From an uncultured archaeon (GTDB taxonomy: Archaea > Iainarchaeota > Iainarchaeia > Iainarchaeales > DATDZZ01): a DNA stretch of 32,000 nucleotides. Position numbers and translations under genes: made by a program. This document shows positions 17,317 to 31,597 of this stretch, piece after piece. Within the stretch, counting starts at the first letter, position 1; every line of letters begins with the position of its first letter. The notes beneath the pieces were generated by a model, which had not been told where the DNA came from, searched no databases, and saw nothing but the letters and a program-made list of their open reading frames with translations. The DNA is taken from positions 1 through 32,000 of the forward strand of contig CAYJVY010000008.1 in assembly GCA_964373795.1 (NCBI GenBank), read 5' to 3'.

Positions 17317-17425
17317 GGAAATCAATTCAATTTCAACAAATCGTTTAAAAATGTTTTCAATTCAATTATTATTAGATTAAAGTAATATATTATTGTTTTT
17401 ATTAACTTTTTTAGGTGATAGGGGT

Positions 17426-18544
17426 ATGCAAATTAAGTCAATTGTTTCAAGGGCAATGAAAGAAGCTAAAACTCCTTCATTAAAGCCAAGAAAAGAATCA
17501 AAAGATGATTCTGATTTAGTTGCTTTGCTTGAAGCAAGCCAAGCAACTATTAAAGTAATTGGAGTTGGAGGAGGTGGCTGTAATACTCTTCAAAGAATGG
17601 CTGAAGTAGGAATTGCTGGAGCAGAAACTTATGCAGTTAATACTGATGCACAAGACTTATTGAAAATTGAAGCTGATAGAAAAATTTTAATTGGAAGAGA
17701 ATTAACTAGAGGCCTTGGATCTGGATCTGATCCTTCAATTGGAGAAGCAGCTGCACATGAATCTGAAAAAGATTTAGCTACTGTTTTAAAGGGAACTGAT
17801 TTAGTGTTCATTACTTGTGGAATGGGTGGAGGAACTGGAACTGGAGCTGCTCCAATGGTAGCGCAAATTGCTAAGGATTTAAAGTGTTTAACTATTGCAG
17901 TTGTAACAATTCCTTTCACTGTTGAAGGAAAGAAAAGAATGGATAATGCTTTAAATGGTTTAGCAAAACTTCAAAAAACTGCTGACACAATTATTGTGAT
18001 TCCAAATGATAAAATTCTTGAAATAGCTCCTGACTTGCCTTTAAATGCTGCATTCAAAGTAGCAGATGAAGTGTTAACTAATGCAGTTAAAGGAATAACT
18101 GAATTAATTACAAAGCCAGGATTAATTAATTTAGATTTCGCGGATTTGAAAACAATTCTAGGAAAAGGTGGAGCTGCAATGATTGGTTTAGGGGAGAGTC
18201 AAACAGAAAAAGCTTCTGATGCAAGAGCTTTAGAAGCAGTTGAAAATGCTTTAACTTCTCCTTTACTGGATGTAGATATTAGTAATGCTAATAGAGCTTT
18301 AATTAATGTAATTGGTGGAACTGATATGACTTTAAGGGAAGCAGAATTAATTGTTGAAGCAGTTTCATCTAAAATTAATTCTTCTGCTCACATTATTTGG
18401 GGTGCAATGATTAACGATGAATTGCCTAGAAATCAAATTCAAGCAATGGTTGTAATTGCTGGCGGAACAATGCCTTACGGAGACTATGAAAGTCATAAAA
18501 CAAGTGAAGGAGCATTTGATTTAGGAATTGAATTCACTGGTTAA
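17426..18544 (+). CDS. ftsZ: Cell division protein FtsZ
   Basis: IGVGGGGCN and the tubulin signature GMGGGTGTGAAP. ATG at 17426 is preceded by GGTGA; the track start 17393 is TTG. Confidence 0.95.
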   Translation: MQIKSIVSRAMKEAKTPSLKPRKESKDDSDLVALLEASQATIKVIGVGGGGCNTLQRMAEVGIAGAETYAVNTDAQDLLKIEADRKILIGRELTRGLGSGSDPSIGEAAAHESEKDLATVLKGTDLVFITCGMGGGTGTGAAPMVAQIAKDLKCLTIAVVTIPFTVEGKKRMDNALNGLAKLQKTADTIIVIPNDKILEIAPDLPLNAAFKVADEVLTNAVKGITELITKPGLINLDFADLKTILGKGGAAMIGLGESQTEKASDARALEAVENALTSPLLDVDISNANRALINVIGGTDMTLREAELIVEAVSSKINSSAHIIWGAMINDELPRNQIQAMVVIAGGTMPYGDYESHKTSEGAFDLGIEFTG

Positions 18545-18771: not shown

Positions 18772-18867
18772 ATTTATCTCTGGAGAAATGTATTAAACTA
18801 GTTTTAAACTAATTGAACTGTTTATTAATTAATTCATGGTTTAAGTGAATGGTTTTAAGTGAATGAA

Positions 18868-19311
18868 ATGATTTTTACTGTTAGAACAACTGTTGGACAA
18901 GAATCCTTAGTTGTAGATATTCTTGGAAACAGAATTAAAAAAGAGGAATTAAATGTTTACTCAATTGCAGTTATTCCTGGATTGAAAGGATATATTTTAA
19001 TTGAAGCAGATAATGAAGTAACAGTTAGAAGAGCTATTACTGGAACTCCTCATATTAAAGGAAGAGGAGTTGTTGGAACAGGAGAAGTAAAAATAGAGGA
19101 ATTAACTTCTTTGCTTGAATCAAAGCCTTTAATGAAAACCTTGAAAGAAGGATTAAAGGTTGAAATAATTCAAGGCCCATTTAAAGGAGAGAAAGCAAAA
19201 ATTATTCGCGTGAACGACTCAAAAGAAGAAGTGCAAGTAGAATTATTGGAAGCAGCAGTAAAAATTCCTGTAACCTTAAAAGCTGAACACATTGTAGTAA
19301 AAAATGAGTGA
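18868..19311 (+). CDS. spt5: Transcription elongation factor Spt5 (NusG)
   Basis: [15 protein letters not shown] start and the KOW motif [15 protein letters not shown]. The track start 18859 is GTG; the ATG is at 18868. Confidence 0.9.
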
Positions 19312-19316
19312 AATTT

Positions 19317-19919
19317 ATGCCTGACATTGATTTATTAGTTGAAGGAGGAAAAGCAAATGCAGGCCCTCCTCTTGGACCAAGTCTTGCTCCTTTAGGAGTA
19401 AACATTGGACAAATAGTTAGCAAAATAAATGAAAAAACAAAAGAATTTAATGGAATGAAGGTTCCAGTTAAAGTAAAAGTTGACGTTAAAACAAAAGCCT
19501 TTGAAATAGAAGTTGGAAGCCCTCCGACAAGTGCTTTAATTAAAAAAGAATTAAAAATTGAAAAAGGATCTGGCACTCCAAAAACAGGAATAGTTGGAAA
19601 TCTTTCATTAGATCAAGTTAAAAAAATTGCTGAAGGAAAACTAGAAAACCTTTCCTCAACTGATTTACAAAAAGCAATGCATGAAGTAATTGGAACAGCT
19701 AATTCAATGGGAGTAACAATTGAAGGCAAACGAGGAAAAATTTGGATGGCTGAATCAAGAGGAGAAAAAATCGAAGAAGACTTTGAAGAAGTAGTTGAAA
19801 AGCCAAAACCAAAAGAAACAGCTGTGGAAAAAACAGAAGAAAAAGTAAAGGAAACAGGAAAAGAAAAACCTTCAAAAGAATCCTCAAAAGAAAAATCAGG
19901 AAAAGAAAAGAAAAAATAA
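19317..19919 (+). CDS. rpl11: 50S ribosomal protein L11 with a C-terminal Lys/Glu-rich extension of about 50 aa
   Basis: [20 protein letters not shown] and the [12 protein letters not shown]11 core. Residues from about nt 19758 onward are low-complexity EKPKPKE...[10 protein letters not shown]. Confidence 0.9.
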
Positions 19920-19921
19920 AA

Positions 19922-20176
19922 CTAATTTTTAATTTTTGTTACATCAAAGAGCTCTAAAATAATTTTTTTCAATTCTTTTTCATTTACTTTAAGTTTTTTA
20001 GAAAAATAGTTCAAATGCTTTAACAGTTCTTGTTTAATGAATTCAGGTGAAAATAGTTTAAGTTCATTATTAATTAAAAGCATTTTTCTTGTTGTGGAAT
20101 CTTTTAATAAAGCTGCAATAATAATGTTTGCATCTATTACTATAATTTGTTTTTTCAAAAGATCACAGCCATTCAA
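19922..20176 (-). CDS. vapC: PIN-domain (VapC-like) protein, apparently C-terminally truncated (84 aa)
   Basis: IIVIDANIIIAAL (first catalytic Asp) and SPEFIKQEL (second acidic residue) are present. The distal acidic residues of a full PIN domain of about 130 aa are absent. ATGA overlap with the upstream antitoxin. Confidence 0.6.
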   Translation of the reverse strand: MNGCDLLKKQIIVIDANIIIAALLKDSTTRKMLLINNELKLFSPEFIKQELLKHLNYFSKKLKVNEKELKKIILELFDVTKIKN

Positions 20177-20415
20177 ACATTTAATCCATGTTTTTTAGCT
20201 ATTTCTTTATTTATTCTTCTACCTAGTTCTATGGCGTCTTCTTCTGTTAATTCGCTATTTTTTGTTAATTCATCAAATTTTTTTAATACTCTTAATCTTT
20301 TTACACGCTCTTCTAAAAAACGTCGCGTTTCTTCCGACCAATTAACCTCTCTAAACTGCTTTAATTCATTTTTCAATTTTGTTGGAACAGATAAAGTTAA
20401 GGTAACTTTATTCAT
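20173..20415 (-). CDS. vapB: VapB-type antitoxin (archaeal PIN-associated family)
   Basis: 80 aa with the SELTEEDAIELGRRINKEI C-terminal block common to archaeal PIN partners. Overlaps the PIN gene by 4 nt. Confidence 0.6.
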   Translation of the reverse strand: MNKVTLTLSVPTKLKNELKQFREVNWSEETRRFLEERVKRLRVLKKFDELTKNSELTEEDAIELGRRINKEIAKKHGLNV

Positions 20416-20439
20416 ATAAAACCTCCTTAAACGCTATAT

Positions 20440-20463
20440 ACACTACTATTAGTGTAAACACTA
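20440..20463 (-). promoter_or_regulatory. Candidate vapBC operator: ACACTA-n4-TAGTGT-n2-ACACTA (three half-sites) next to a TATA-like ATATATAAA
   Basis: Half-sites lie at 20440-20445, 20450-20455 and 20458-20463, 25-48 nt upstream of the vapB ATG. TTTATATAT is at 20464-20472. Confidence 0.45.
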
Positions 20464-20498
20464 TTTATATATTTTTCTAAAAACATTGCACAAAATAT

Positions 20499-20567
20499 TC
20501 AGACTTTTTAGGCACCAGGAAATGCCTTTTTTTAGAGGTAAAATAGTCAGACTTTTTAGGCACCAGG
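20499..20567. repeat. Perfect 21-bp direct repeat TCAGACTTTTTAGGCACCAGG x2, separated by 27 bp
   Basis: Copies at 20499-20519 and 20547-20567. The first is followed by AGGCA-n8-TGCCT plus T7 (hairpin and T-tract). It sits between the glmU-like stop and the vapB promoter. Confidence 0.85.
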
Positions 20568-20577
20568 TATTTGAAAT

Positions 20578-21780
20578 TTACTTATCCTCTTTCACTATTT
20601 CTCCAGGCAAAGTAGTTGTTCTCGGAGAAAGTTTTACTCCTGGATAAAAAGAGGAATTAATTCCTATTTTGCAGTTGTCTCCAAAAATTGCTCCAAGTTT
20701 TTTTCTTCCAGAATCAATTTTCTCTCCTTTCAAAATTGATTTAACGTTCGCATGATCGTGCCTTAAGTTTGCAGTAATTGTTCCAGCGCCTAAATTACAG
20801 TTTTCTCCAATCACTGAGTCTCCTACATAGCTTAAATGAGGAATCTTTGTTCCATTTTCAATAACAGAATTTTTTACTTCAACTGCTTGTCCGATCTTGC
20901 AACCATTCATTATTGATGTGTTTCCTCTAATAAAACAATTTGGGCCAATTTCACAGTTCTCTCCAATGAAAACATTGCCTTCAATATAAGTTCCGCTTTT
21001 CAGTGTACTGCCTTTTCCTAAACTAATTTTTCCTTTAATATGCACTCCTTCCTCAATAATTCCTTCAATTTTGTTTTCCTTTAAACTTCCAACAAAAAAC
21101 TCGTTTGCCTTAAGTAAATCCCATGGATATGCAATTGGGAACCAGTAATCTAAAACTTTTTCCACGAAAACCTTTTCTTTTTCTGTAACTAAAAATTTTA
21201 AGTAATCAACTAATTCAAATTCTTTTCTTTCCGAAAGCTGTAATTTGTGTTTGAAAATTTTTTTGTTTAAAACATACAAGCCAGTGCCAACTAACTTGCT
21301 TTTCGGGTTTAAAGGTTTTTCCACGAAACCTTTCAACAAATTTTTCTCAGCTTCGATTACGCCGAATTTTTCTGCGTCCTGCCTTTCTGCAGCAAGAACA
21401 CAAAACTCTTTTTTCACGCAGTTTTTCAAATCTTTTGCTGAATAAAAGTCATCTCCATTCATTACAATAAATTTGTCCTTCAATTTTTTTTCGCAGAGAT
21501 GTAAAGCTTGTCCAGTGCCTTGAGGATTATTTTGTTCAATAAAAGAAATTTTTAATTTCAGCTTCTCTGCAACTTTTTTTGTATGTTCAATTAATTGTGC
21601 TTTCTCGAATCCAACTACAAGAATTATTTCTTCCAGTTCTTTTCCAGTTGCTTGCTTGATTTGCTCCAAATTGTGTTCAAGAATTGTTTTTCCTGCAACT
21701 TTCAGTAAAGGTTTTGGCTTGTTTACAGTTAAAGGCCAGGTTCTAGTGCTTTTTCCTGCGCATAATAAAACAAATTGCAT
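20578..21780 (-). CDS. glmU: Bifunctional sugar-1-phosphate nucleotidylyltransferase / acetyltransferase (archaeal GlmU-like; N-terminal NTP-transferase plus left-handed beta-helix)
   Basis: LLCAGKSTR (GxGxR-type) N-terminal motif and C-terminal hexapeptide repeats (IGENCEIGPN, IGENCNLGAG, FGDNCKIGIN). Confidence 0.8.
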   Translation of the reverse strand: MQFVLLCAGKSTRTWPLTVNKPKPLLKVAGKTILEHNLEQIKQATGKELEEIILVVGFEKAQLIEHTKKVAEKLKLKISFIEQNNPQGTGQALHLCEKKLKDKFIVMNGDDFYSAKDLKNCVKKEFCVLAAERQDAEKFGVIEAEKNLLKGFVEKPLNPKSKLVGTGLYVLNKKIFKHKLQLSERKEFELVDYLKFLVTEKEKVFVEKVLDYWFPIAYPWDLLKANEFFVGSLKENKIEGIIEEGVHIKGKISLGKGSTLKSGTYIEGNVFIGENCEIGPNCFIRGNTSIMNGCKIGQAVEVKNSVIENGTKIPHLSYVGDSVIGENCNLGAGTITANLRHDHANVKSILKGEKIDSGRKKLGAIFGDNCKIGINSSFYPGVKLSPRTTTLPGEIVKEDK

Positions 21781-21783
21781 TTT

Positions 21784-22548
21784 TCATTCCCCAATTTTTT
21801 TTAAATATTTAATTATTTGTTCGTGAATTAATCCATTGCTTGCAATTAAGTCTCTTGAAGTTGTTTGCCATTCTTTTCCTTGCCAGTTAGTTACTTTTCC
21901 TCCGGCTTCTCTTACAAGTATGGTTCCAGCAGCAATATCGTATAACTCGTAGTCTCCTCCGAATCTTGCATCCATTCTTCCAATAGCAACATTAGCTAAA
22001 TCTAATGCCGAACTTCTAGTTATTTTAATTCGCCTAGATATTTGAATTATTTCAATGTTTTTTTCTAGGTCTCTTCGCCTTGATGACAAACCTATAGTGG
22101 ATTCATCTAATATTTTGTATTTTGAAACATGGATTGGTTTTTCATTGAGATATGCTCCTTTTCCTTTTTCTGCATAGAAAAGTTCTTTTCTGCAAGGATC
22201 TAAAGTCACTCCCACAATGACTTCTGAATTTTTAATTAAAGCAATTGTAATGCAAAAATATGCAAACCCTCTTTCAAAGTTTCCAGTGCCATCTAGTGGG
22301 TCAATAGTCCATAAGTAATCTGAATTTTTTGTCTGTTTTCCAAATTCTTCTCCGTAAAAAGAGTGCTCTGGAAATTCAGCTGAAATTATTTCAATTATTT
22401 TTTTCTCTGCTTCTTTGTCTGCTTGTGTTACTGTAGAGCCATCTGCTTTTTTTTCTGAAACAAATTCTTTATCAAAATACCTCATTGCAATTTTTCCAGC
22501 CGCTTTTACAGCCTTTATTGCAATTTTCAATTCTTTTGATTTATTCAT
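21784..22548 (-). CDS. suhB: Inositol monophosphatase family protein (archaeal IMPase/FBPase-type)
   Basis: FYGEE, WTIDPLDGTGNF and the C-terminal YDIAAG motifs. Confidence 0.85.
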   Translation of the reverse strand: MNKSKELKIAIKAVKAAGKIAMRYFDKEFVSEKKADGSTVTQADKEAEKKIIEIISAEFPEHSFYGEEFGKQTKNSDYLWTIDPLDGTGNFERGFAYFCITIALIKNSEVIVGVTLDPCRKELFYAEKGKGAYLNEKPIHVSKYKILDESTIGLSSRRRDLEKNIEIIQISRRIKITRSSALDLANVAIGRMDARFGGDYELYDIAAGTILVREAGGKVTNWQGKEWQTTSRDLIASNGLIHEQIIKYLKKIGE

Positions 22549-23168
22549 TTTAAGCCTCTTCTTCTTTGATTTATCCTTGATTGAGATTTATTTCTTTTTC
22601 TAATTCTTCTTTCTTTTTTTTGTTTTAATGCAATTCCATATGATGTTCCTTTTGTCAGAGTAAGACCTTCATCAATATTTATTCTTCTTCTATCAATTTT
22701 TAGTTTAAACCGTAAATGGTTTTCCACATCGTATACACAGTCTTCTTTGTATTCCCCAAATAAATTAAATCTTGTTTCACTTGAAGCATTTAATCCTTTT
22801 CTTTTCAATTCTTCTACTATTGAATTTACTTGCCCAACCACTCCAATTTGATTCATTGGAATAACAACTATTCTTTCTTGTAATTCTTTTTCAGCAAATC
22901 CAACTAGTTTTAATAATTCTGGTAATTTACTTAATCCATCTATGGAAGTTGGAAGCAAGATAACTAGAACGCTTTTTTCTCTTCCTTTTACTTTTTGAAT
23001 TTGTTTGCCCCAATGCATTTTAAGTGCTTGAACGCCTTGAAAAAATCTTTTTCTATGTGCTTTGTTAGTGAACAAATCTTTTTCCAAGTTTGGACGCAGT
23101 GTGCTTTGCAGTCGAACGTAATACTCATACAATGGGTGAATTAATACATTTATTTCTTCTACATCCAT
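22545..23168 (-). CDS. Uncharacterised paralog P1 (globular alpha/beta-like domain plus polybasic tail)
   Basis: Shares MxxxxxNVLIHPLY, WGKQI, SVLVIL, FAEKEL, RIVVIP, TRFNLFGEYKEDCV, HLR and RRRINI blocks with the next ORFs. Tail is KQKKERRIRKRNKSQSRINQRRRGLK. ATGA overlap with suhB. Confidence 0.8.
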   Translation of the reverse strand: MDVEEINVLIHPLYEYYVRLQSTLRPNLEKDLFTNKAHRKRFFQGVQALKMHWGKQIQKVKGREKSVLVILLPTSIDGLSKLPELLKLVGFAEKELQERIVVIPMNQIGVVGQVNSIVEELKRKGLNASSETRFNLFGEYKEDCVYDVENHLRFKLKIDRRRINIDEGLTLTKGTSYGIALKQKKERRIRKRNKSQSRINQRRRGLK

Positions 23169-23174
23169 TTTTTT

Positions 23175-23771
23175 TCACACTCTTCTAGGAGTATTTCTTT
23201 TTCCAGGCCTTATTTTTGGAGAATCTCTTTTTTTTCTATTAGTGTGTGAAGGTCTTTTGTATCCAGTATATCCTTTTCCACGTCTTTTAGAACTTTCTGG
23301 AAAGCTTAGCTGTTTTTCTATTTCTATTTCTTCCTTTTCCAGTGTTCTTAATGCGCCGCAAACAAGTGGAACACAGTATTCTTTGTGTTCTCCGAATACC
23401 TTAAACCTTGTTTCGTTTGAGACTTCAAATTTTTTTGATAATTCATGAAATGCTTTAAACATTTGTTGTTCAGCTGTGAGTCCTGGAAAACCAAAAACTA
23501 TAACTAATTTGTCTCCTAATTCTTTTCTTGCAAAATCAATTAATTTTTTTAATTCTCTTTCTGCATTATTAGTTGGTTGGGAATCTGAAAGCAATGGATG
23601 TAAGATTATGAATGCAGAATTAGGAGTTCTTGTAACTTCGCGCATTCTTTGCATCCAACGTCCTGTAAGAATTTTTACTCCTTGAAGCTGTCTTCCAAAT
23701 TCTTGTGGGTCTTGCACTCCAAGTAATTCATCCAATGGATGAACTAATACATTTACTTCTCTGAGTTGCAT
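23175..23771 (-). CDS. Uncharacterised paralog P2
   Basis: MQLREVNVLVHPLDEL, NSAFIILHP, FARKEL, LVIVFG and TRFKVFGEHKEYCV. Tail is SKRRGKGYTGYKRPSHTNRKKRDSPKIRPGKRNTPRRV. I chose the start at ATG 23771 so that Met-x5-NVL matches the paralogs; an alternative ATG is at 23780. Confidence 0.8.
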   Translation of the reverse strand: MQLREVNVLVHPLDELLGVQDPQEFGRQLQGVKILTGRWMQRMREVTRTPNSAFIILHPLLSDSQPTNNAERELKKLIDFARKELGDKLVIVFGFPGLTAEQQMFKAFHELSKKFEVSNETRFKVFGEHKEYCVPLVCGALRTLEKEEIEIEKQLSFPESSKRRGKGYTGYKRPSHTNRKKRDSPKIRPGKRNTPRRV

Positions 23772-23789
23772 AAAAATCATTAATTAATT

Positions 23790-24404
23790 TCAAATTCTTG
23801 TTCTTGGTTTGTTTTTTCTTCCTGAACGAAGCTTTGTTTTGCCGACAATTTTTCTTCTTGTTCTTGGTTTGTAATATTCTTCATAGTTTGCTCTTTCAGA
23901 TGCATGACTTAGAGGACTCTTTATTTCGATTCTTTTACGATCTATATGTAGATTATATTTTGGTGCAAAGAGACGCAAATGTTCTGACACTGATGTAACA
24001 CATCTATGTTCATGTTCACCAAAAAGAACAAAACGTGTATTTGGTCCAATATTCACTCTATACTCTTGCATCATTGTGAGCATTAGTTGTGTCTGCTCCC
24101 ATATTGATTCCCTAGGCGGCACAACTATTAGTCTACTTACTAATTCCCTTTTTGCAAACGCGATTAGTTTTTCAACATCTTTTGGATCATCTTTTTTTAT
24201 GCGTGGGGTAAAAATTACAAGAACACTATTTGGATTGCCTTTTATTTGTAAAATTTTTTTTCCCCAATAGAATTTCAAAAACTTTGCTCCATGCAAACCT
24301 TTTGTTACGCGATCCACTTTCTTTCTTCTAGCTTTGGGTATACGGTGTAATTCTAAATAGTCATACAATGGATGAACTAAAACATTCAATTCTTCAACTT
24401 CCAT
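23790..24404 (-). CDS. Uncharacterised paralog P3
   Basis: MEVEELNVLVHPLYDY, WGKKILQIKG, NSVLVIF, FAKREL, LIVVPP, TRFVLFGEHEHRCV, HLR and RKRIEI. Tail is YKPRTRRKIVGKTKLRSGRKNKPRTRI. The track start 24410 is TTG; the ATG is at 24404. Confidence 0.8.
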   Translation of the reverse strand: MEVEELNVLVHPLYDYLELHRIPKARRKKVDRVTKGLHGAKFLKFYWGKKILQIKGNPNSVLVIFTPRIKKDDPKDVEKLIAFAKRELVSRLIVVPPRESIWEQTQLMLTMMQEYRVNIGPNTRFVLFGEHEHRCVTSVSEHLRLFAPKYNLHIDRKRIEIKSPLSHASERANYEEYYKPRTRRKIVGKTKLRSGRKNKPRTRI

Positions 24405-24753
24405 TTTCAAAACCTTCTCGGAGTGTTTCTTCTTCCTGATCTAGTTTTAGGTTTTCCAAACTCTTTTCTTCTTTCAACTGGTTTTTTTTGTATCTAGTGT
24501 AGCCTGTTTTCCTTTTTGTATCGTAAAGGGAAAGACCGAGTCTTTTGTCAATTTCGACTCTTTTCATTCCTAGTTCCATATCTGGGTTTGTTGCAACTTC
24601 TTTAATTCTCCGCCCCCAAAGACTTCTAAGAATTTTTGAGGTATTGAATTCTCTGTCAGAACTTTCATGAACCTCCTCAAATAATGCATAGAATGGATGT
24701 CTTAGTAAGTCATACAGCAGATGAACTAAAACATTGACTTGTGTTAACTCCAT
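24394..24753 (-). CDS. Uncharacterised paralog P4, an internally deleted version (head and tail retained, core missing)
   Basis: MELTQVNVLVHLLYDL, WGRRIKEV..NP and then directly MKRVEIDKRL and GYTRYKK (matching RKRIEIK of P3 and GYTGYKRP of P2). There is no FGE..CV block. Overlaps the P3 start by 11 nt. Confidence 0.6.
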   Translation of the reverse strand: MELTQVNVLVHLLYDLLRHPFYALFEEVHESSDREFNTSKILRSLWGRRIKEVATNPDMELGMKRVEIDKRLGLSLYDTKRKTGYTRYKKNQLKEEKSLENLKLDQEEETLREGFENGS

Positions 24754-24759
24754 AAATAA

Positions 24760-26115
24760 TCAAATACCAATTTCTTTCTTAATTTCTTCTGCGATTTTGT
24801 TTGCATATTCTTCTATTTGTTTTTGGTTTTCTCCTTCAATCATTATTCTTGCAAGATTTTCTGTTCCACTGTAACGAATAAGTGTTCTTCCATTGCCTGA
24901 AAGCTTTTCCTCGACTTCTTGAATTGCTTTTTTCACTGAAGGCATTTCATTGAATTCAATTTTTTCTTTCACGCACACGTTCACTAGAACTTGTGGAAAT
25001 GATTTCATTATTGTTGCAAGCTTTGATAGTTTTTCTTTTTTTTCTTTCATTATTTTCAATAACTGTAAAGCAGTAATTATTCCATCTCCTGTAGTTGAAT
25101 ACTTGGAAAAAATTATGTGCCCTGATTGTTCTCCTCCTAAAACTATTTTTCTTTTACGCATTTCATCTATTACGTATTTGTCTCCAACAGCTGTTTTGAA
25201 TATTTTTACTCCGAGTTTTTGCATTGCTTTATCAAATCCTAAATTAGTCATTACTGTTACTACAACTGAGTTTTCATCTAACCTGTTTTTTTCCATTAAA
25301 TTATTTACACAAATAGCCATTATGTGGTCTCCGTCCACAAAGTTTCCTTTTTCATCTGAAACAATTACTCTATCTGCATCTCCGTCTAAAGCAATTCCTA
25401 AATCTGCTTTTTCTTCTAAAACTTTTTTCTGCATTTCTTGTGGATGCGTTGCTCCGCAATTCAAGTTAATGTTTTGTCCATCTGGTTTGCTGTTCATTAC
25501 AATTACTTTTGCTCCTAGTTCTGAAAAAATTTTTGGAGCTACATCGTATGCTGCTCCGTTAGCGCAATCTAAGACTATTTTCATTCCTTCTAATGACTCT
25601 GATTTAATTGAGGATTTTGCAAACTCTATATACCTGCCTTTTGCATCGTCTATTCTATATGCTTTTCCAATTTTTGTTGCAGGAGCATAAACTGATTTCA
25701 TTTTTTCTTCTAAAACTAGTTTTTCTATTTGTTCTTCAACTTTTTCATCTAATTTAAATCCATCCTCATTGAAGATTTTTATTCCATTGTCTTGAGAAGG
25801 ATTATGTGAAGCAGAGATAACAATTCCTGCTTCTGCATTCAATGACTTAGTTAAATGAGCTATTGCAGGAGTAGGCATTGGTCCTACAAGTAAAACGTTT
25901 GCTCCCATTGAAACAATTCCACTCGTAAGCGCGGATTCAATCATATAACCACTTAAACGAGTGTCTTTTCCTATAACAATTTTTGGAGTTCCATTTCCTG
26001 AATGTTCTTTAAAATAATTTGCTGCTGCTTTTCCAATCAAAAGTGCAAGCTCTGGAACCATTGGATAAACATTTGCAGTAGCCCTAATTCCATCTGTTCC
26101 AAACAATTTGCCCAT
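24760..26115 (-). CDS. glmM: Phosphoglucosamine mutase
   Basis: LFGTDGIRA, the phosphoserine loop SASHNP, metal loop LDGDADR, and GEQSGH. ATG at 26115 is preceded by GGTGA; the track start 26127 is TTG. Confidence 0.9.
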   Translation of the reverse strand: MGKLFGTDGIRATANVYPMVPELALLIGKAAANYFKEHSGNGTPKIVIGKDTRLSGYMIESALTSGIVSMGANVLLVGPMPTPAIAHLTKSLNAEAGIVISASHNPSQDNGIKIFNEDGFKLDEKVEEQIEKLVLEEKMKSVYAPATKIGKAYRIDDAKGRYIEFAKSSIKSESLEGMKIVLDCANGAAYDVAPKIFSELGAKVIVMNSKPDGQNINLNCGATHPQEMQKKVLEEKADLGIALDGDADRVIVSDEKGNFVDGDHIMAICVNNLMEKNRLDENSVVVTVMTNLGFDKAMQKLGVKIFKTAVGDKYVIDEMRKRKIVLGGEQSGHIIFSKYSTTGDGIITALQLLKIMKEKKEKLSKLATIMKSFPQVLVNVCVKEKIEFNEMPSVKKAIQEVEEKLSGNGRTLIRYSGTENLARIMIEGENQKQIEEYANKIAEEIKKEIGI

Positions 26116-26120
26116 TTTTT

Positions 26121-26768
26121 TCACCAACTCAAAATTTGATCAATATTAATTTCTTTCAAAGAATTCACAATTAAGTTTGCTTCTTTCAAATCCTCTTCTG
26201 TAGTGTAATTACTCTTTAATGCAATGCATTTCATTCCAGCTCTTCTAGCAGCTTTGACTCCATTAAATGTGTCTTCGATTACTACACAGTTTTTTGGTTT
26301 TTCATTTAAATCCTTTGCTGTTTTCAGAAAAATGTCTGGAGCTGGTTTGGAATTTGCAACATTTTCTGCGGAGTTTGTTATTTCAAAATATTTTGCAATA
26401 TTTAATTTATTTAAAATTATTTTAATTTCTTTAACTGAAGAAGAAGTCGCTAAACCAATTTTTGTATTTCTTTTTTTGAAAGCTTTAACTAACTCAATTG
26501 CTCCATCAATTGGTTTCAATTCTTTTTTCAGCATTTCAAAATAGTTTTCCCTTCTCTCAGCTATTAATTTTTCAATGCTTGGAGGTAAATTATATTTTTC
26601 TTTTAAATGTGTCCAAACTTCTTTTGCTCCTCTTCCCATGCCATAAATATAATCTTCTTCATCTAATTTTGCATTGAACCTTTTTAACACAATATTATCT
26701 GCTTTGTCATGTACTTTTTCTGTATCAACTATTACTCCGTCCATGTCAAAAATAATTGCTTTAATCAT
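26121..26768 (-). CDS. HAD-IA hydrolase, beta-phosphoglucomutase / sugar-phosphatase-like
   Basis: IIFDMDGVIVDTE, ATSS, KPAPDIF and EDTFNGVKAARRAGM motifs. ATG at 26768 has GGTGA 7 nt upstream. Confidence 0.8.
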   Translation of the reverse strand: MIKAIIFDMDGVIVDTEKVHDKADNIVLKRFNAKLDEEDYIYGMGRGAKEVWTHLKEKYNLPPSIEKLIAERRENYFEMLKKELKPIDGAIELVKAFKKRNTKIGLATSSSVKEIKIILNKLNIAKYFEITNSAENVANSKPAPDIFLKTAKDLNEKPKNCVVIEDTFNGVKAARRAGMKCIALKSNYTTEEDLKEANLIVNSLKEINIDQILSW

Positions 26769-26784
26769 TTGTTTTTCACCAATG

Positions 26785-28548
26785 TCATTTAACTGTAACA
26801 CTTTTTGCAAGGTTGCGTGGGTAATCTGGATTGATGCCTTTTCTAATGCTTACAAAATATGCAAGTAATTGAATTGGAATTAAATTCATTAATGGAAAGA
26901 ATTTTTCTGTTGCAGGGACTTGAATGAATTCTCCAATTCCAGGATTTTCAGATCCAATGCAAATTACTTTTGCTCCGCGAGATTTCACTGTATTTGCATT
27001 GCTTAAAGTGTCATTTTTTGTTTCATCTTCTGAAAGCAATACAATGCAAGGAATTCCTTCCTCAATTAGCGCTAGAGGCCCATGCTTTATTTCTCCTCCA
27101 GGAAAACCAATTACTGGAAGATAGCAAACTTCTTGCAATTTAATTGCAGCTTCAAGCGCAATAGGGTAATTCATTCCTCTACCCAAAACAAACAATTTTT
27201 CCTTGGATTTAATTTTTTCCGCCAGGGTTTGAATTTGTTCAATGAAAGAATTGTTTGAAAGCAATTTACTTAAATCGTTTAAAGCTTTTTCTAATTCTTT
27301 GCTGTTTTTTTCAAAAGAGTTTGAAAGCAAAAACGCAAGCACGTAAGCAATAATTATTTGTCCAGTAGTTGATTTAGTTGAAGCAACTGCTTTTTCAATT
27401 CCTGCACAAACAGGAATTACTATATTCGATTTGCGATGCATTGAAGTGTTTTCAGCGTTAATTATTGAAACAATTTTTGCCCCGCGTGATTTTGCAATTT
27501 CTATTGCTTCAAGAGTATCAGCTGTTTCTCCTGATTGAGAAACAGCAATTACAATTGTTTTTTCATTAACGAATTTTGCAAAGTTTTCGAATTCAGATGA
27601 AACGCATGCAATGCATTCCTTTCCTCCAAATCTTGAAAAAATATATTGAGCAAGTAAAGCAACTTTGTGTGCAGTGCCTGCTCCAATAATGAAAACTTTT
27701 TCTGCTTTTTTAATTATTTCAGCTGCTTTAAGTGCTTCTTGTTTGCTTTCTTTAAAAGCTTGAAAAACAGAAAACTTTTGATCCATTATTTCTTTTAACA
27801 TTAAATGTTCAAACACGTTTTCTTCACTTTTATTGTTTCTGTTTATTTCTTCAATTCTTTTTTTTACTTTAACTTCTTTTTTTGAATTTAAGTCAATAAT
27901 TTTGATTTTGGAATTCATTGAAGTCATTTCATTGTCCTCTAAATAAATTGCTTTTCTCACTTTAAGTGGAAATGCTTGAATATCTGATGCTATAAAGAAT
28001 TGTTTTTTATTTATTCCTATAATCAATGGTGAACCATTTTTTACTCCAATGATTTCATTAAAATCTTCATGCATTGCAACGAAAGCATATCTTCCTTCAA
28101 GTTTTTTTACAGCTTCAAAAACTGCTTCTTCAAAGTTTTTTTTCTGGCAAAAAAATTCAATTAATTGAGGAATGACCTCTGAATCTGTTTCAGTTTCAAA
28201 AATTATTCCTTTTCCTTGCAAGAAACTCTTTATTTCTTGAAAGTTTTCAATTATTCCATTATGCACTACAGAAATTTTTTTATTTAAAGAAAAAATTGGA
28301 TGAGTGTTTTCCAAGCAAACCTTTCCATGTGTTGCCCACCTAGTATGCCCAATTGCTTCAAGGCTTGGAATTTTTTTTTCAAGCAAAGCTGAACTAATTT
28401 TTCCAACTTTTTTCACTGTTTCTAAGGAATTGTGTTTTTTGAAGGCAATTCCCCAAGAATCGTATCCTCTATATTCAAGTTTTTTTAATCCTTCAAAAAC
28501 TAGTTGAACTGCTTGAGTAGAGTTAATTGCTCCAATTATTCCACACAT
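26785..28548 (-). CDS. glmS: Glutamine--fructose-6-phosphate aminotransferase (isomerising)
   Basis: The obligatory Met-Cys start MCGIIGA (ATG at 28548), HTRWATHG, two SIS domains (SQSGETADT), and the C-terminal DYPRNLAKSVTVK. Confidence 0.95.
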   Translation of the reverse strand: MCGIIGAINSTQAVQLVFEGLKKLEYRGYDSWGIAFKKHNSLETVKKVGKISSALLEKKIPSLEAIGHTRWATHGKVCLENTHPIFSLNKKISVVHNGIIENFQEIKSFLQGKGIIFETETDSEVIPQLIEFFCQKKNFEEAVFEAVKKLEGRYAFVAMHEDFNEIIGVKNGSPLIIGINKKQFFIASDIQAFPLKVRKAIYLEDNEMTSMNSKIKIIDLNSKKEVKVKKRIEEINRNNKSEENVFEHLMLKEIMDQKFSVFQAFKESKQEALKAAEIIKKAEKVFIIGAGTAHKVALLAQYIFSRFGGKECIACVSSEFENFAKFVNEKTIVIAVSQSGETADTLEAIEIAKSRGAKIVSIINAENTSMHRKSNIVIPVCAGIEKAVASTKSTTGQIIIAYVLAFLLSNSFEKNSKELEKALNDLSKLLSNNSFIEQIQTLAEKIKSKEKLFVLGRGMNYPIALEAAIKLQEVCYLPVIGFPGGEIKHGPLALIEEGIPCIVLLSEDETKNDTLSNANTVKSRGAKVICIGSENPGIGEFIQVPATEKFFPLMNLIPIQLLAYFVSIRKGINPDYPRNLAKSVTVK

Positions 28549-28706
28549 GATAAAAAAGTACTGCAAGGCAGATATTTAAAGACTTATAAATAAAACTTCA
28601 ATCCGTTATAAATTTCTTTATAACTATTCAAACTTATATTTAAAAGAATTTCCTTTTAACAATATGTTTATATTATAAGATTTTTTTTACTAGTATAAAG
28701 TTTTGT

Positions 28707-29681
28707 TTGTATTCAGTGATTGTTTTGATTGGTGAATTAGTTTTTGACTCTAAGGGAAAGAGAATTGTTTTACAGTCTGATGTTCGTGAATCTGTAAAGG
28801 GTTTGAAGCCTTTGCTTAACGAGAATTGTTGGCAGATTTTGCGTCTTTTGGCTGTAAAGTCTTTGTATCCTGCTCAGATTGCTAAAGAACTTGACTTGCA
28901 TGAGCAAAGAGTTTATTATTTTGTCAAACTTTTACGTAAAGCTGGATTAATTGAGGTTGAAAAGAGTGTGGAATTGAATGGTGCTTTGGCTAAATATTTT
29001 AAACCAAGTTTTGAAGCAATTTCTTTTGTTCTAGGCTCTGGAAATGCAAGGACTGCTAGAGTTGTTTCTTTGCAGCAGAAAAAAATGTCTTCAGATGTAG
29101 CTGAATTTTTTTCTCCGTTTATTTTAAATGGTAAACTGAATGCAAAAATTGTTGTAGGCAATCCTGATCCTCATGGAGAATTTAAGGCCCGCGCTAGAGA
29201 TAATTACTTAGCTGCTGATTTAACTGCTTTTCTTTCTTCTCTTTGCTCTGAAGTTAATTTGCCTTTAGTTTTTTTGGATACAAGTATTTCTTCAATTGAG
29301 CAGGAGAATTCTAACTTGATTTTAATTGGAGGAATTGTTACTAACAAGCTTTCTCTTCAAATAAATCATTTGCTGCCAATAAAATTTGTTTCTCATGGAG
29401 GGCATTGGATTATTAGTTCAACTCTTTCTGGCAAGGATTTTGCTGAAGATTTTGTTGGCATAGTGCAAAAAATTCCTCATCCAAAGTTTAAGGATAAAAG
29501 CATTTTAGTTATTGCAGGTAATCGCGCACAAGGAACTAAGGCAGCTATTCTTTCTCTTGCAAAAAGCCTTCACTCTATTATCAAGCCTAATGCTTTTAAT
29601 AAAAACTTTTTTGCTCATGTAGTTGAAGGCCTTGACTTGGATGCAGATGGAGAAATAGATGAAGTGGAATTAAAAGAGTAG
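28707..29681 (+). CDS. wHTH (ArsR/TrmB-like) N-terminal domain fused to an uncharacterised C-terminal domain of about 210 aa
   Basis: CWQILRLLAVKSLYPAQIAKELDLHEQRVYYFVKLLRKAGLIE is a classic ArsR-type wHTH. I did not recognise the C-terminal domain (NLILIGGIVTN, ILVIAGNRAQGT). The start codon is uncertain (track start is TTG). Confidence 0.65.
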   Translation: MYSVIVLIGELVFDSKGKRIVLQSDVRESVKGLKPLLNENCWQILRLLAVKSLYPAQIAKELDLHEQRVYYFVKLLRKAGLIEVEKSVELNGALAKYFKPSFEAISFVLGSGNARTARVVSLQQKKMSSDVAEFFSPFILNGKLNAKIVVGNPDPHGEFKARARDNYLAADLTAFLSSLCSEVNLPLVFLDTSISSIEQENSNLILIGGIVTNKLSLQINHLLPIKFVSHGGHWIISSTLSGKDFAEDFVGIVQKIPHPKFKDKSILVIAGNRAQGTKAAILSLAKSLHSIIKPNAFNKNFFAHVVEGLDLDADGEIDEVELKE

Positions 29682-29746
29682 ACTTTTATACTCTTTTAAA
29701 CAAAATTTCATTAGAAGCTATAAGAATTTTTAATACTCTTGAAGCT

Positions 29747-29944
29747 TTGTTGAATAAAAAATTAGCTGATAATCTTGTTAGACAAAACATTGAAGACTTG
29801 TTTAAATTATTTCCTTCTGCAAAAAAACAGTATTTAGCGCGCGTAAGGAATTCTGGAAAACCTTCATTGAGAACAAGGGTTAAAGAGTTTCCTGGAAAAG
29901 CTTTTAATTTTTTAAAATCAAGGCTTTCCCTTAGAAGACCCTGA
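29747..29944 (+). CDS. Hypothetical small basic protein (65 aa), doubtful
   Basis: The ORF has only TTG starts and no ATG. It is Lys/Arg-rich and followed by a T-tract. No recognisable family. Confidence 0.25.
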   Translation: MLNKKLADNLVRQNIEDLFKLFPSAKKQYLARVRNSGKPSLRTRVKEFPGKAFNFLKSRLSLRRP

Positions 29945-29989
29945 TTTTTTTAAAACATTTAGGTTAAGCTAGGCGAAAATAAAAAAATA

Positions 29990-30008
29990 AAGGAAGTTTT
30001 TCTTCCTT
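29990..30008. terminator. Perfect 7-bp hairpin AAGGAAG-TTTTT-CTTCCTT between convergent genes
   Basis: Read directly. It is flanked by A/T runs and overlaps the stop codon of the minus-strand lipoprotein gene. Confidence 0.5.
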
Positions 30009-30360
30009 ATCCTAAAGCAATTTCTACATTTGTTGTTTGTCCTTCAGATATATTGAATTCATTTGAATTAACCTTGTTTGTTGTATTAGCATCGTATGCT
30101 ACTGCATAGTAAGTATCCGGATCTACTTCAAAAGTTGTTTCTCCAGAAGCATCTGTGAATTGATTAAATGTTTGTTGATTTGAAGTAACGCTAATAAGGT
30201 TGACTTCTACTCCTTCTAAAGGATTTCCTGAACTCGCATCTAGCACTTTTACAGTCGCTTCTCCTGTTCCAGGGCTGAGTACAGGAGGGCCAACACACCC
30301 TGCAACTAAAACTGCTATGATTAATATTCCTATTAATATTTTGAAATTCATTTTTTTCAC
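30007..30360 (-). CDS. Small secreted/lipid-anchored protein with a carboxypeptidase-regulatory-like (Ig-like beta-sandwich) domain
   Basis: Signal peptide MKKMNFKILIGILIIAVLVAGC with a lipobox-like VAGC. ATVKVLDASSGNPLEGVEVNL...TDASGETTFEV is typical of CarboxypepD_reg-like folds. Confidence 0.65.
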   Translation of the reverse strand: MKKMNFKILIGILIIAVLVAGCVGPPVLSPGTGEATVKVLDASSGNPLEGVEVNLISVTSNQQTFNQFTDASGETTFEVDPDTYYAVAYDANTTNKVNSNEFNISEGQTTNVEIALG

Positions 30361-30400
30361 CTTCTATATTTTAATTACCATAAAATACATGAATTAGTAT

Positions 30401-30414
30401 TATTTAAATCTTTT
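30401..30414 (+). promoter_or_regulatory. Third copy of the TATTTAAATCTTT promoter block, upstream of the acidic micro-ORF
   Basis: The first 13 nt of TATTTAAATCTTTT (30401-30413) match 82-94 and 30762-30774. It lies about 90-100 nt upstream of ATG 30501. Confidence 0.4.
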
Positions 30415-30500
30415 ATATTTGTTAGTTAAAACCTTCTGGTTTTTAAATTTATCTCATAATATTTAATTGATATTAATTTTACTTTTTGGAGGTAAGTTTA

Positions 30501-30626
30501 ATGCAATTAGAAATGTTAAGATATAAATTCCAAGACGATGACGATTCAGATGAAGGGGACTGGGATGACTCTGATGAAGATGATGATGATTCAGACGACT
30601 CAGATGAAGGAGAACAAGACGAGTAA
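30501..30626 (+). CDS. Unannotated 41-aa hyper-acidic peptide MQLEMLRYKFQDDDDSDEGDWDDSDEDDDDSDDSDEGEQDE
   Basis: My own translation; it is below the ORF-track size cutoff. GGAGGT lies at 30488-30493, 7 nt before the ATG. It has its own TATA-like block and a T7 tract downstream. It contains an internal duplication, GA(C/T)GA(T/C)TCAGATGAAGG(G/A)GA (DDSDEG twice). Confidence 0.5.
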   Translation: MQLEMLRYKFQDDDDSDEGDWDDSDEDDDDSDDSDEGEQDE

Positions 30627-30761
30627 CTTTAATGCCTTTCCTATTTTTTTCATTTAAATTGCTAGGTTAAATCTATTTCTATTTTTTTATTCTTTTAATG
30701 ATTTATTTTTACACTTCCTTTGTTTAATTTCTTGCAAACTTTCTTGCAGACGAGGAAAACT

Positions 30762-30777
30762 TATTTAAATCTTTCTT
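30762..30777 (+). promoter_or_regulatory. Candidate promoter of the rpl1-rpl10 operon, TATTTAAATCTTTCTT
   Basis: The 16-mer is identical to 82-97 upstream of rpl21e, and AATTAATTA follows 6-7 nt later in both. It implies a leader of about 135 nt before rpl1. Confidence 0.5.
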
Positions 30778-30833
30778 AGACTTAATTAATTATAATATTG
30801 GTAAAAAACTTTTTTTACCGTTATCACCACTTT

Positions 30834-30886
30834 AACGATTTTTCGTTGCAAATTTCGTGAGCGATTTTTTGTCAACGAGTTTTCGT
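30834..30886 (+). promoter_or_regulatory. CpG-rich palindrome cluster in the rpl1 leader: AACGA-TTTT-TCGTT, TCG-TGAG-CGA and AACGA-GTTT-TCGT
   Basis: Hairpins/palindromes at 30834-30847, 30855-30864 and 30874-30886. The first and third are near-identical and 40 nt apart. CpG density is unusual for this genome. Confidence 0.4.
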
Positions 30887-30925
30887 AAACCTTTTTTCTA
30901 AAAAGTTTTGTGGGAGGACTATAAA

Positions 30926-31597
30926 TTGAATAAGAATCAAGTATTGGATGCCCTTAAATTAATGCGTGAAAAATCTAAGGAACGGAAATTTAAGCAGTCA
31001 GTTGATTTGACTATTACTTTTCGTGGATTGGATTTTAAGAAACCTGATAGCGCTATTTCATTGGAACTGAATTTGCCTAACCCTGTTTCAGCTAGGAAAG
31101 GAGCTGCAAAAGCTTTGTTGTTTGTAAGGGATTCAGGTTTTGCTTTACAGGCAAAGGATTTGGTTGCAAGAATTATTAATGAAAACGAAATTCATGCCCT
31201 TAAAAAGAAAGATGCCGAGCAATTGGCTTCAGAGTTTGATGTTTTATTAGCTGAGGGGCCTGTAATGCTTACTGTTGCAAAGTATTTAGGACAAATTTTG
31301 GCTCCGAAAGGAAAAATGCCTCGCCCTGTTCAGACAAGCATTCCTCAATTAGAGTCAATGCTTAAAACCGGGCATTCTTTGACAAAGGTTTCAAACAAGA
31401 AGGGAAAAAATATTCCAATGATTCATGTAAAGGTTGGAACTCAAGAATCAAGTGATAATGAATTGGCTGAAAATGTTTTAACAGTGTATAATGCTGTTGA
31501 AGAAAAGCTTCCGGGGAAAAAGCAAAACGTTAGATCAATTTATTTAAAGTTTACAATGGGGCCACCGGTTAAGATTGGAGCAGGTGAAGCAAAATGA
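30926..31597 (+). CDS. rpl1: 50S ribosomal protein L1
   Basis: MNKNQVLDALKLMREKSKERKFKQSVDL... is a typical L1 N-terminus. A TTG start at 30926 lies 8 nt after GGAGG (30913-30917); the track start 30908 is also TTG. ATGA overlap with rpl10. Confidence 0.9.
   Translation: MNKNQVLDALKLMREKSKERKFKQSVDLTITFRGLDFKKPDSAISLELNLPNPVSARKGAAKALLFVRDSGFALQAKDLVARIINENEIHALKKKDAEQLASEFDVLLAEGPVMLTVAKYLGQILAPKGKMPRPVQTSIPQLESMLKTGHSLTKVSNKKGKNIPMIHVKVGTQESSDNELAENVLTVYNAVEEKLPGKKQNVRSIYLKFTMGPPVKIGAGEAK

Follow-up and report, generated by a model that had tools for sequence, protein, structure and literature searches.

The window analyzed here, 32,000 nucleotides (nt) of contig CAYJVY010000008.1 (assembly GCA_964373795.1), is an archaeal fragment with a GC content of 31% that carries, upstream of the ribosomal protein gene rpl1, an open reading frame (ORF) for a very small and exceptionally acidic peptide. 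This micro-ORF (30501..30626, plus strand; 41 codons and a TAA stop) has the product MQLEMLRYKFQDDDDSDEGDWDDSDEDDDDSDDSDEGEQDE, in which 17 Asp and six Glu account for 23 of the 41 residues, alongside two Lys or Arg and one Trp. The peptide has a net charge of -21, a calculated pI of 4.05 and a mass of 4.9 kDa. Its best 30-residue span contains 22 Asp or Glu, no other span in any frame of the window has more than 12, and the real genes of the window have zero to nine such residues at positions 2-41. The sole non-acidic part is the N-terminal segment MQLEMLRYKFQ (codons 1-11, 30501..30533, plus strand), a possible docking segment in which hydrophobic and polar residues alternate; its hydrophobic moment at 160 degrees is 0.72, a strand-like value that 0.9% of shuffles reach, while at the 100 degrees of a helix it falls below the shuffle mean. 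Codons 12-41 (30534..30623, plus strand) form a polyanionic tract of 22 Asp or Glu, four Ser, two Gly, one Gln and the single Trp, which sits in the sequence GDWDD. Within this tract a short unit occurs three times on the plus strand, as DDSDEG (GACGATTCAGATGAAGGG, 30540..30557), DDSDED (GATGACTCTGATGAAGAT, 30564..30581) and DDSDEG (GACGACTCAGATGAAGGA, 30594..30611). Compared to the first unit, the second has four third-position differences and one second-position difference, while the third has only two, both third-position and synonymous, such that 30540-30557 and 30594-30611 match at 16 of 18 nucleotides.

The flanks of the micro-ORF contain several candidate expression signals. A Shine-Dalgarno (SD) sequence, GGAGGT (30488..30493, plus strand), lies 7 nt before the ATG. 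Most genes of the window have GGTG, GAGG or GGAGG 5-9 nt before the start codon, and the start context of the micro-ORF, TTGGAGGTAAGTTTAATG, ranks among the best in the window, a ribosome-binding context normal for this genome and of the kind expected of coding genes in general. Shuffles predict 0.05 occurrences in the window of GGAGG-N5-9-ATG placed entirely within intergenic DNA, and one is observed, at the micro-ORF. Further upstream, a TATA-box-like core of 14 nt, TTATTTAAATCTTT (30400..30413, plus strand; 100 nt upstream of the ATG), is a putative promoter in a putative forward orientation, with exact copies in the same orientation before rpl21e (81-94) and before rpl1 (30761-30774); the TATA block within it, TATTTAAATCTTT (30401-30413), recurs exactly at 82-94 and 30762-30774. 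The rpl21e and rpl1 promoters have in common a 35-nt block (77-112 and 30757-30792) of the form AAC(C/T)TATTTAAATCTTTCTT.G...TAATTAATTA, with a score that none of 500 shuffles reached, and this block is probably a TATA box together with an initiator region serving translation genes of high expression. In archaea, transcription terminates at oligo-T runs. A run of seven T (30644..30650, plus strand) starting 18 nt past the stop codon is a candidate terminator, and a second such run (30682..30688, plus strand), upstream of the rpl1 promoter core, is a candidate back-up. An earlier sequence-only reading of the stretch had reported the ORF from ATG 30501 to TAA 30626, its 41 residues with 23 Asp or Glu and one Trp, a DDSDEG duplication visible in the nucleotides, GGAGGT 7 nt upstream and a run of seven T after the stop, all of which were confirmed upon recounting; its amphipathic N-terminus holds for a strand (within the top 1% of shuffles) and fails for a helix.

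Several lines of evidence point to the micro-ORF as a coding sequence. The GC content is 39% within the ORF vs. 17% and 26% in its flanks, the codons chosen for Asp, Glu, Ser and Gln match those of the window genes, and the entropy of the acidic tract by codon position (0.85, 1.01 and 1.87 bits) places most of the variation at third positions. The combination of a GC island, genome-like codons and third-position variation is the composition expected of a coding gene. Taken together, the DDSDE[G/D] units vary at four third positions and at one second position, as would be expected had the peptide sequence been conserved after duplication, and this internal comparison is the one hint of constraint. 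The periods that Tandem Repeats Finder detected, 15 and 3 nt, are both degenerate, so the tract is not a clean microsatellite. An open frame of 41 codons has a probability of ~0.035-0.05 by chance, and the opposite strand has no ORF of 25 amino acids (aa) or more. A structured RNA was considered and rejected, as the RNA of the micro-ORF folds no better than shuffles (z = -1.39) and in Rfam no family reached its gathering score; a single weak match (E 0.29) was on the minus strand at 30781-30820. The micro-ORF had been described as unannotated, which did not hold up, as automatic gene calling on two public Logan contigs includes it as a 41-aa gene. The coding call is therefore plausible based on the SD context, the GC island, codon usage, third-position variation, the promoter-like and oligo-T elements and the lack of a significant RNA fold; we consider it reasonably probable that the micro-ORF is translated.

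The organism is distant from its sequenced relatives. In a protein database of 5.8 billion clusters, no other L1 exceeds 61% identity to that of the window, the best-named matches belong to Candidatus Diapherotrites or Iainarchaeum metagenome-assembled genomes, and the nearest sequenced relatives are Iainarchaeota with an L1 identity of 58-61%. In most Iainarchaeota, FtsZ, nusG, rpl11, rpl1, rpl10, rpl12 and Lon are contiguous or nearly so. In the window, FtsZ (17393-18544), Spt5/NusG (18859-19311) and rpl11 (19308-19919) are followed by a VapBC-like pair (19922-20415), a sugar-nucleotide cluster of 8 kb (with four unassigned paralogs), glmS, a gene with HTH and S_layer_C domains (HTH/S_layer_C; 28707-29681), a lipoprotein-like gene with a CarboxypepD_reg domain (30007-30351, minus strand) that is divergent from the micro-ORF, and the micro-ORF, before the order resumes with rpl1 (30926-31597, start codon TTG) and then rpl10, rpl12 and Lon; rpl21e (155-460; Pfam Ribosomal_L21e) lies at the other end of the window. 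As the genes are contiguous in most Iainarchaeota, the ~11 kb between rpl11 and rpl1 (19920-30925) constitute a block that keeps the two apart in this lineage, in agreement with the inserted block that had been suspected near rpl1. None of the genes neighboring the micro-ORF was seen to be an integrase, viral or defense gene. Between the HTH/S_layer_C gene and the divergent gene, positions 29682-29944 (plus strand) hold a frame that is open from the HTH/S_layer_C stop codon, with no ATG and a TTG only at 29747, and that resembles the C-terminal half of a 134-aa basic protein at the same position in a relative (locus L045; 38% identity over 56 aa, E = 0.002). The frame may be a decaying gene remnant or a gene for a small basic protein.

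The micro-ORF appears to be separate from the rpl1 leader. In relatives, the same TATA motif lies ~80-90 nt before the start of rpl1, with a conserved leader and no ORF after it, which places the micro-ORF outside the ancestral rpl1 leader. In the window, ~300 nt separate the micro-ORF stop codon from rpl1, and this spacer includes both runs of seven T and the separate rpl1 promoter core. The possibility that the region is an untranslated part of a longer rpl1 leader can thus be set aside. The rpl1 leaders of relatives have in common a small hairpin abutting the SD, with the stem CCAC..GTGG, CTAC..GTAG, CTGT..ACAG or CTGC..GCAG (L040 3940-4003, L042 1999-2062, L043 3940-4003, L045 1378-1441, L046 546-609, L047 712-775). 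Compensatory changes occur in three of its four pairs and an outer CCG pairs into the GGAGG region, and the hairpin is probably an L1 autoregulatory or SD-sequestering element; it has no match to an Rfam family. The window (30826-30925) and locus L044 have GTTTTGTGGGAGG in place of the hairpin.

Searches for relatives of the peptide were negative. No family in Pfam-A was matched by hmmscan at E<=0.01 nor at E<=10, there was no match in NCBIfam or PHROGs, and no PDB sequence matched at E<=10; based on these searches the micro-ORF is in no known family. Synteny was compared across 20 loci from genomes, 17 from metagenomes and 10 contigs retrieved by their L1 homologs. None of the relatives among these loci has an acidic ORF upstream of rpl1, although conserved acidic micro-ORFs at that place had been proposed as a check, and because L1 identity is no more than 58-61% even to the nearest relatives, the negative is a sign of lineage restriction and not of tolerance to frameshifts. 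The small genes directly before rpl1 vary by relative and include a ferredoxin or a membrane protein in addition to toxin-antitoxin pairs and very basic proteins. Among relatives with the arrangement glmS, HTH/S_layer_C gene and rpl1, a UPF0175/DUF3368 toxin-antitoxin pair precedes rpl1 in L040 and L041, two very basic proteins do so in L045, and in L047 the spot has a basic, HEAT-like protein encoded on the opposite strand; L042 has no gene there and a spacer of 118 nt. In L046, glmS itself, on the opposite strand, is directly upstream of rpl1. From these comparisons, we regard the site before rpl1 as an insertion hotspot and the micro-ORF as specific to the window organism. Two possible origins within the same genome were examined. 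An origin in a duplicated 3' end of the HTH/S_layer_C gene upstream was not significant (9 of 300 shuffles), and derivation from a duplicated rpl12 start region, which the SD and first codons of the micro-ORF resemble, was marginal (3 of 300 shuffles reach the score) and was not adopted. Of the further copies of the locus (L001 and L002), L001 differs from the window by one base in 11.5 kb. The assembly of run ERR4904391 is interrupted at 30628/30629 (end of L002, start of L053), two bases past the micro-ORF stop, and L053 begins with an Illumina adapter remnant, GTTCAGACGTGTGCTCTTCCGATCT; the break is probably a library or assembly artifact.

Acidic ORFs were found at a different position in the same operon of other Iainarchaeota. 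A scan of all fetched loci for small acidic ORFs returned three matches beyond the two copies of the window, and a fourth came from the gene calls of a contig fetched later. All four lie between rpl10 and rpl12 (L003, 5947-6162, 71 aa; L023, 3924-4112, 62 aa; L026, 3305-3541, 78 aa; L049, 5682-5885, 67 aa, a called gene), consist of 52-57% Asp and Glu with 15-22 Ser and Thr, and have a GGAGG SD of their own. The ORFs of L003, L023 and L026 begin with MEEEN, MDEEN and MDDEN, respectively, and share a core, ETSEETEN, that is absent from the window ORF. Between the two closest copies, L003 and L026, the indels measure 15, 6, 3 and 39 nt and each preserves the frame, which indicates that acidic peptides are maintained as reading frames in the phylum, in a patchy manner, as the sister genomes L048, L050 and L043 lack an acidic ORF between rpl10 and rpl12. 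These ORFs had no Pfam match, a profile of the three scanned ORFs had no match in the protein search, and the sequences of L003, L023 and L026 are themselves absent from the protein database. They resemble the window ORF in occurring in the same phylum, in their small size, in Ser placed beside acidic residues, in DSDE-type motifs, in the lack of a Pfam match, in having their own SD and in the tie to the operon encoding L1, P0 and P1 (the stalk operon). In contrast, the window ORF lies upstream of rpl1, is Asp-rich and has a hydrophobic N-terminal segment and a Trp, whereas the ORFs between rpl10 and rpl12 are inside the operon, are rich in Glu, Thr and Ser, and have neither a hydrophobic N-terminal segment nor an aromatic residue. 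Homology between the two was not demonstrable, as the alignment is compositional only and the position in the operon differs.

AlphaFold2 assigned no secondary structure to the micro-ORF peptide (pLDDT 63, pTM 0.13), which is accordingly predicted to be disordered. Our tentatively favored reading, which we would put somewhat short of an even chance, is that the micro-ORF is a young, lineage-specific gene, expressed independently, whose product is a disordered polyanion with electrostatic binding to basic proteins, where the best reading of its distribution is a gene restricted to a species or genus with an Iainarchaeota/Diapherotrites (DPANN) host. The function is something we infer, as are transcription, translation, any client and any benefit. 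Transcription would start ~25-30 nt downstream of the TATA core that is identical to those of two ribosomal protein promoters, the transcript would end at the runs of seven T before the separate rpl1 promoter, and the strong SD would drive translation of the 4.9-kDa peptide. The acidic tail would imitate a nucleic-acid backbone and thereby occupy or shield the basic surfaces of nucleic-acid-binding proteins, with the N-terminal segment and the single Trp potentially adding some specificity. The likeliest clients would be basic ribosomal or ribosome-associated proteins, because the L1-P0-P1 operon is adjacent and contains analogous acidic ORFs in relatives. The same mode is exemplified by DSS1 and CSNAP (PMC8442969) and by acidic ribosomal protein escortins (PMC6131548, PMC6648895). 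Escortins of the Tsr2 type (Tsr2 for eS26) are acidic and shield basic ribosomal proteins, and the micro-ORF adjoins a ribosomal protein operon, but such escortins are folded, eukaryotic and at least 150 aa long, compared to the 41 aa of the micro-ORF (PMC6131548, PMC6648895). Of the functions that the sequence-only reading had proposed, that of a chaperone or antagonist of polybasic proteins survives in part, as a generic polyanion binding basic partners is the most reasonable mechanism, while the specific link to nearby paralogs that it suggested is unsupported. We know of no acidic ribosomal protein escortin described in archaea.

A number of observations weigh against this favored reading. 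The nearest relatives have no ortholog at the syntenic site, and the hypervariable spot before rpl1 is the type of place where non-functional ORFs arise. No homolog was found by phmmer among 1.84 billion representatives or by a word-indexed search of 5.8 billion clusters, both of which are weak negatives because the acidic peptides studied here are absent from the collection and the composition correction penalizes such queries. The other copies of the micro-ORF, from three sequencing runs, are 100% identical over the ORF and so provide no variation for a test of selection. The claim that the micro-ORF shares its TATA block with ribosomal protein promoters stands for the exact 14-nt core and not for the wider 35-nt block of rpl21e and rpl1, which is absent here, and the reverse complement of the TATA block, AAAGATTTAAATAA, is TATA-like as well, such that the core may serve the divergent gene at 30007-30351. 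Runs of Asp and Glu in the first 30-40 residues destabilize translating ribosomes in bacteria and eukaryotes and are avoided by proteomes, and the run of the micro-ORF, from residue 12, is of this type (PMC9718836). Either the archaeal ribosomes of this lineage could cope with such runs, or the ORF could be translated inefficiently, possibly as a sensor. Lastly, the association between acidic ORFs and the stalk operon is suggestive only, as it amounts to approximately two independent events and is not statistically secure.

A serious rival, if an unlikely one, is that the micro-ORF is a neutral proto-gene, a purine-rich and GAY-rich tract of low complexity that was expanded by small duplications in an intergenic hotspot of fast turnover, happens to lie behind an SD and ATG and has no selected function; such a tract may be transcribed and even translated. 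Its presence in one organism only, at a site with different cargo in every relative, fits this explanation, as do the visible internal duplications, the possible decayed gene remnant 550 nt upstream (29714-29860) and the 14-nt TATA match, which does not reach significance in a free local alignment. The differences between the repeated units, four at third positions and one at a second position, instead fit purifying selection after duplication, the SD, its spacing and the ATG are optimal, and comparable acidic ORFs keep their frame in other Iainarchaeota.

The acidic ORFs of relatives allow for a broader explanation, in which hyper-acidic micro-ORFs are a recurrent and undescribed accessory of the stalk operon that acts on the ribosome. 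The window ORF fits a provisional group of this kind (>50% Asp and Glu, an SD of its own and a position adjacent to the L1-P0-P1 operon), of which it would be an independently evolved or relocated member. One possibility is that the members are translated 'risk' sequences, with acidic runs in the first 40 residues that cause intrinsic ribosome destabilization (IRD) and so adjust stalk-gene expression to Mg2+ or to the state of the ribosome; another is that they act as free polyanions that partner with the stalk base. Like the micro-ORF, the acidic hinge and tail of the stalk proteins P1 and P0 are an acidic low-complexity stretch beside or within the stalk operon; the micro-ORF differs from P1/P2 in having no Ribosomal_60s match, and hence no N-terminal dimerization domain, and it ends in ...GEQDE, as opposed to the ...EGLGALFG of the organism's own P1, without the GLxxLFG motif. 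We regard this explanation as improbable.

Two further explanations are more doubtful still. In the first, the micro-ORF is an unexpressed chance ORF in an AT-rich spacer, and the TATA block serves only the divergent gene at 30007-30351; the reverse complement of the block indeed has TTTAAATA ~45-50 nt upstream of the SD and ATG of that gene. This is a poor account of the joint occurrence of an SD with ATG (~0.05) and a 41-codon open frame (~0.04), and of the GC island, genome-like codon usage and three-base periodicity, and it is held to be quite unlikely. In the second, which has a similarly small chance of being correct, the act of translation itself matters and the micro-ORF is a regulatory sensor whose IRD would report Mg2+ or ribosome status and modulate the downstream stalk operon, through its expression or through read-through into it, by analogy with bacterial MgtL. 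The micro-ORF and such IRD leader peptides are alike in being short ORFs upstream of regulated genes with an acidic run in the first 40 residues. The whole micro-ORF peptide, with its run from residue 12, would fit within the exit tunnel, and the ORF lies directly upstream of a ribosomal operon. For sequences of exactly this type, IRD has been documented in both bacteria and eukaryotes, and Mg2+ counteracts it (PMC9718836; bioRxiv 10.1101/2021.02.02.429294). The three scanned ORFs of relatives are acidic from their first codons, and each of the four related ORFs has rpl10 on one side and rpl12 on the other. Unlike MgtL, the micro-ORF is followed by terminator-like T runs and a separate promoter; ~300 nt, two runs of seven T and a full rpl1 promoter with its own conserved leader intervene before rpl1, and no alternative RNA structures were detected. 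IRD is not known from archaea.

It is very improbable that the micro-ORF encodes an adaptor like DSS1/Sem1 or a protein dedicated to partnering the four basic-tailed paralogs (22545-24753). DSS1/Sem1, CSNAP and the micro-ORF peptide are all tiny, highly acidic and disordered, and in each an aromatic residue is surrounded by acidic ones, as in GDWDD, and binding to the basic grooves of partner proteins is a likely mode for each (PMC8442969). The net charge per residue of the micro-ORF peptide, 0.51, exceeds the 0.31 of DSS1 and the 0.25 of CSNAP, and DSS1 has several conserved regions with an acid-flanked Trp and a transient C-terminal helix (PMC8442969), compared to a single aromatic motif and no C-terminal helix (AlphaFold2/DSSP) in the micro-ORF. 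The Pfam family DSS1_SEM1 gave no match even at E<=10, and the PCI-domain partners and partner complexes of DSS1 are eukaryotic, such that the adaptor idea was not borne out. A charge partnership with the paralogs would suit their disordered, K/R-rich tails, but no link was found; the paralogs are on the other strand, 6-8 kb away, in the sugar-nucleotide cluster, with no evidence of co-occurrence.

The least probable explanation, a DNA-mimic anti-restriction or anti-defense protein from a mobile element, shares with T7 Ocr, ArdA and Neisseria DMP12/DMP19 a dense negative charge and would suit an insertion-prone spot near the toxin-antitoxin modules of the lineage, but known mimics compete with nucleic acid for basic sites as folded proteins with a rigid, DNA-like charge array (Ocr has 116 aa; PMC3439906, PMC3643605), whereas the peptide has 41 aa, is predicted to be disordered and thus has no such array, and has no PHROGs match, no phage, integrase, viral or defense genes nearby and a CarboxypepD_reg-domain gene as its neighbor, so that the nucleic-acid-mimic proposal of the sequence-only reading is disfavored.

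Several of the neighboring proteins are themselves unusual. The four tandem paralogs (22545-24753, minus strand) have 207, 201, 206 and 119 aa, the last of which looks truncated, and have no match in Pfam, NCBIfam or PHROGs. AlphaFold2 (pLDDT 71) models them with a Rossmann-like alpha/beta core and a disordered K/R-rich tail of ~40 residues; compared to the PDB, the best TM-score of the core is ~0.4 and no match reaches E<=0.001. Archaeal P0 typically has an acidic hinge and a GLxxLFG tail. The P0 of the window organism (281 aa; rpl10 at 11094-11939 of L001, just past the window end) ends in ...ALQSLVKNE and has neither the acidic hinge nor the P1-like GLxxLFG tail, and the P0 of relatives have Lys/Glu-rich extensions and likewise lack the GLxxLFG tail. 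Some L1 of relatives (P0005, P0010, P0031) possess long C-terminal extensions rich in Lys, Glu and Pro, and the L11 of the window (19308-19919) has 203 aa vs. ~156-161 aa in relatives, the surplus being a Glu/Lys-rich C-terminal extension.

If the micro-ORF is real and functional, its product would be among the smallest and most highly charged disordered proteins of any cellular genome, in a reduced DPANN archaeon for which each retained gene is informative. If it is a neutral proto-gene, it would be a clean case of de novo ORF birth in an insertion hotspot, of modest general interest. The micro-ORF also presents a natural archaeal test case for whether ribosomes tolerate or exploit N-terminal poly-Asp/Glu.

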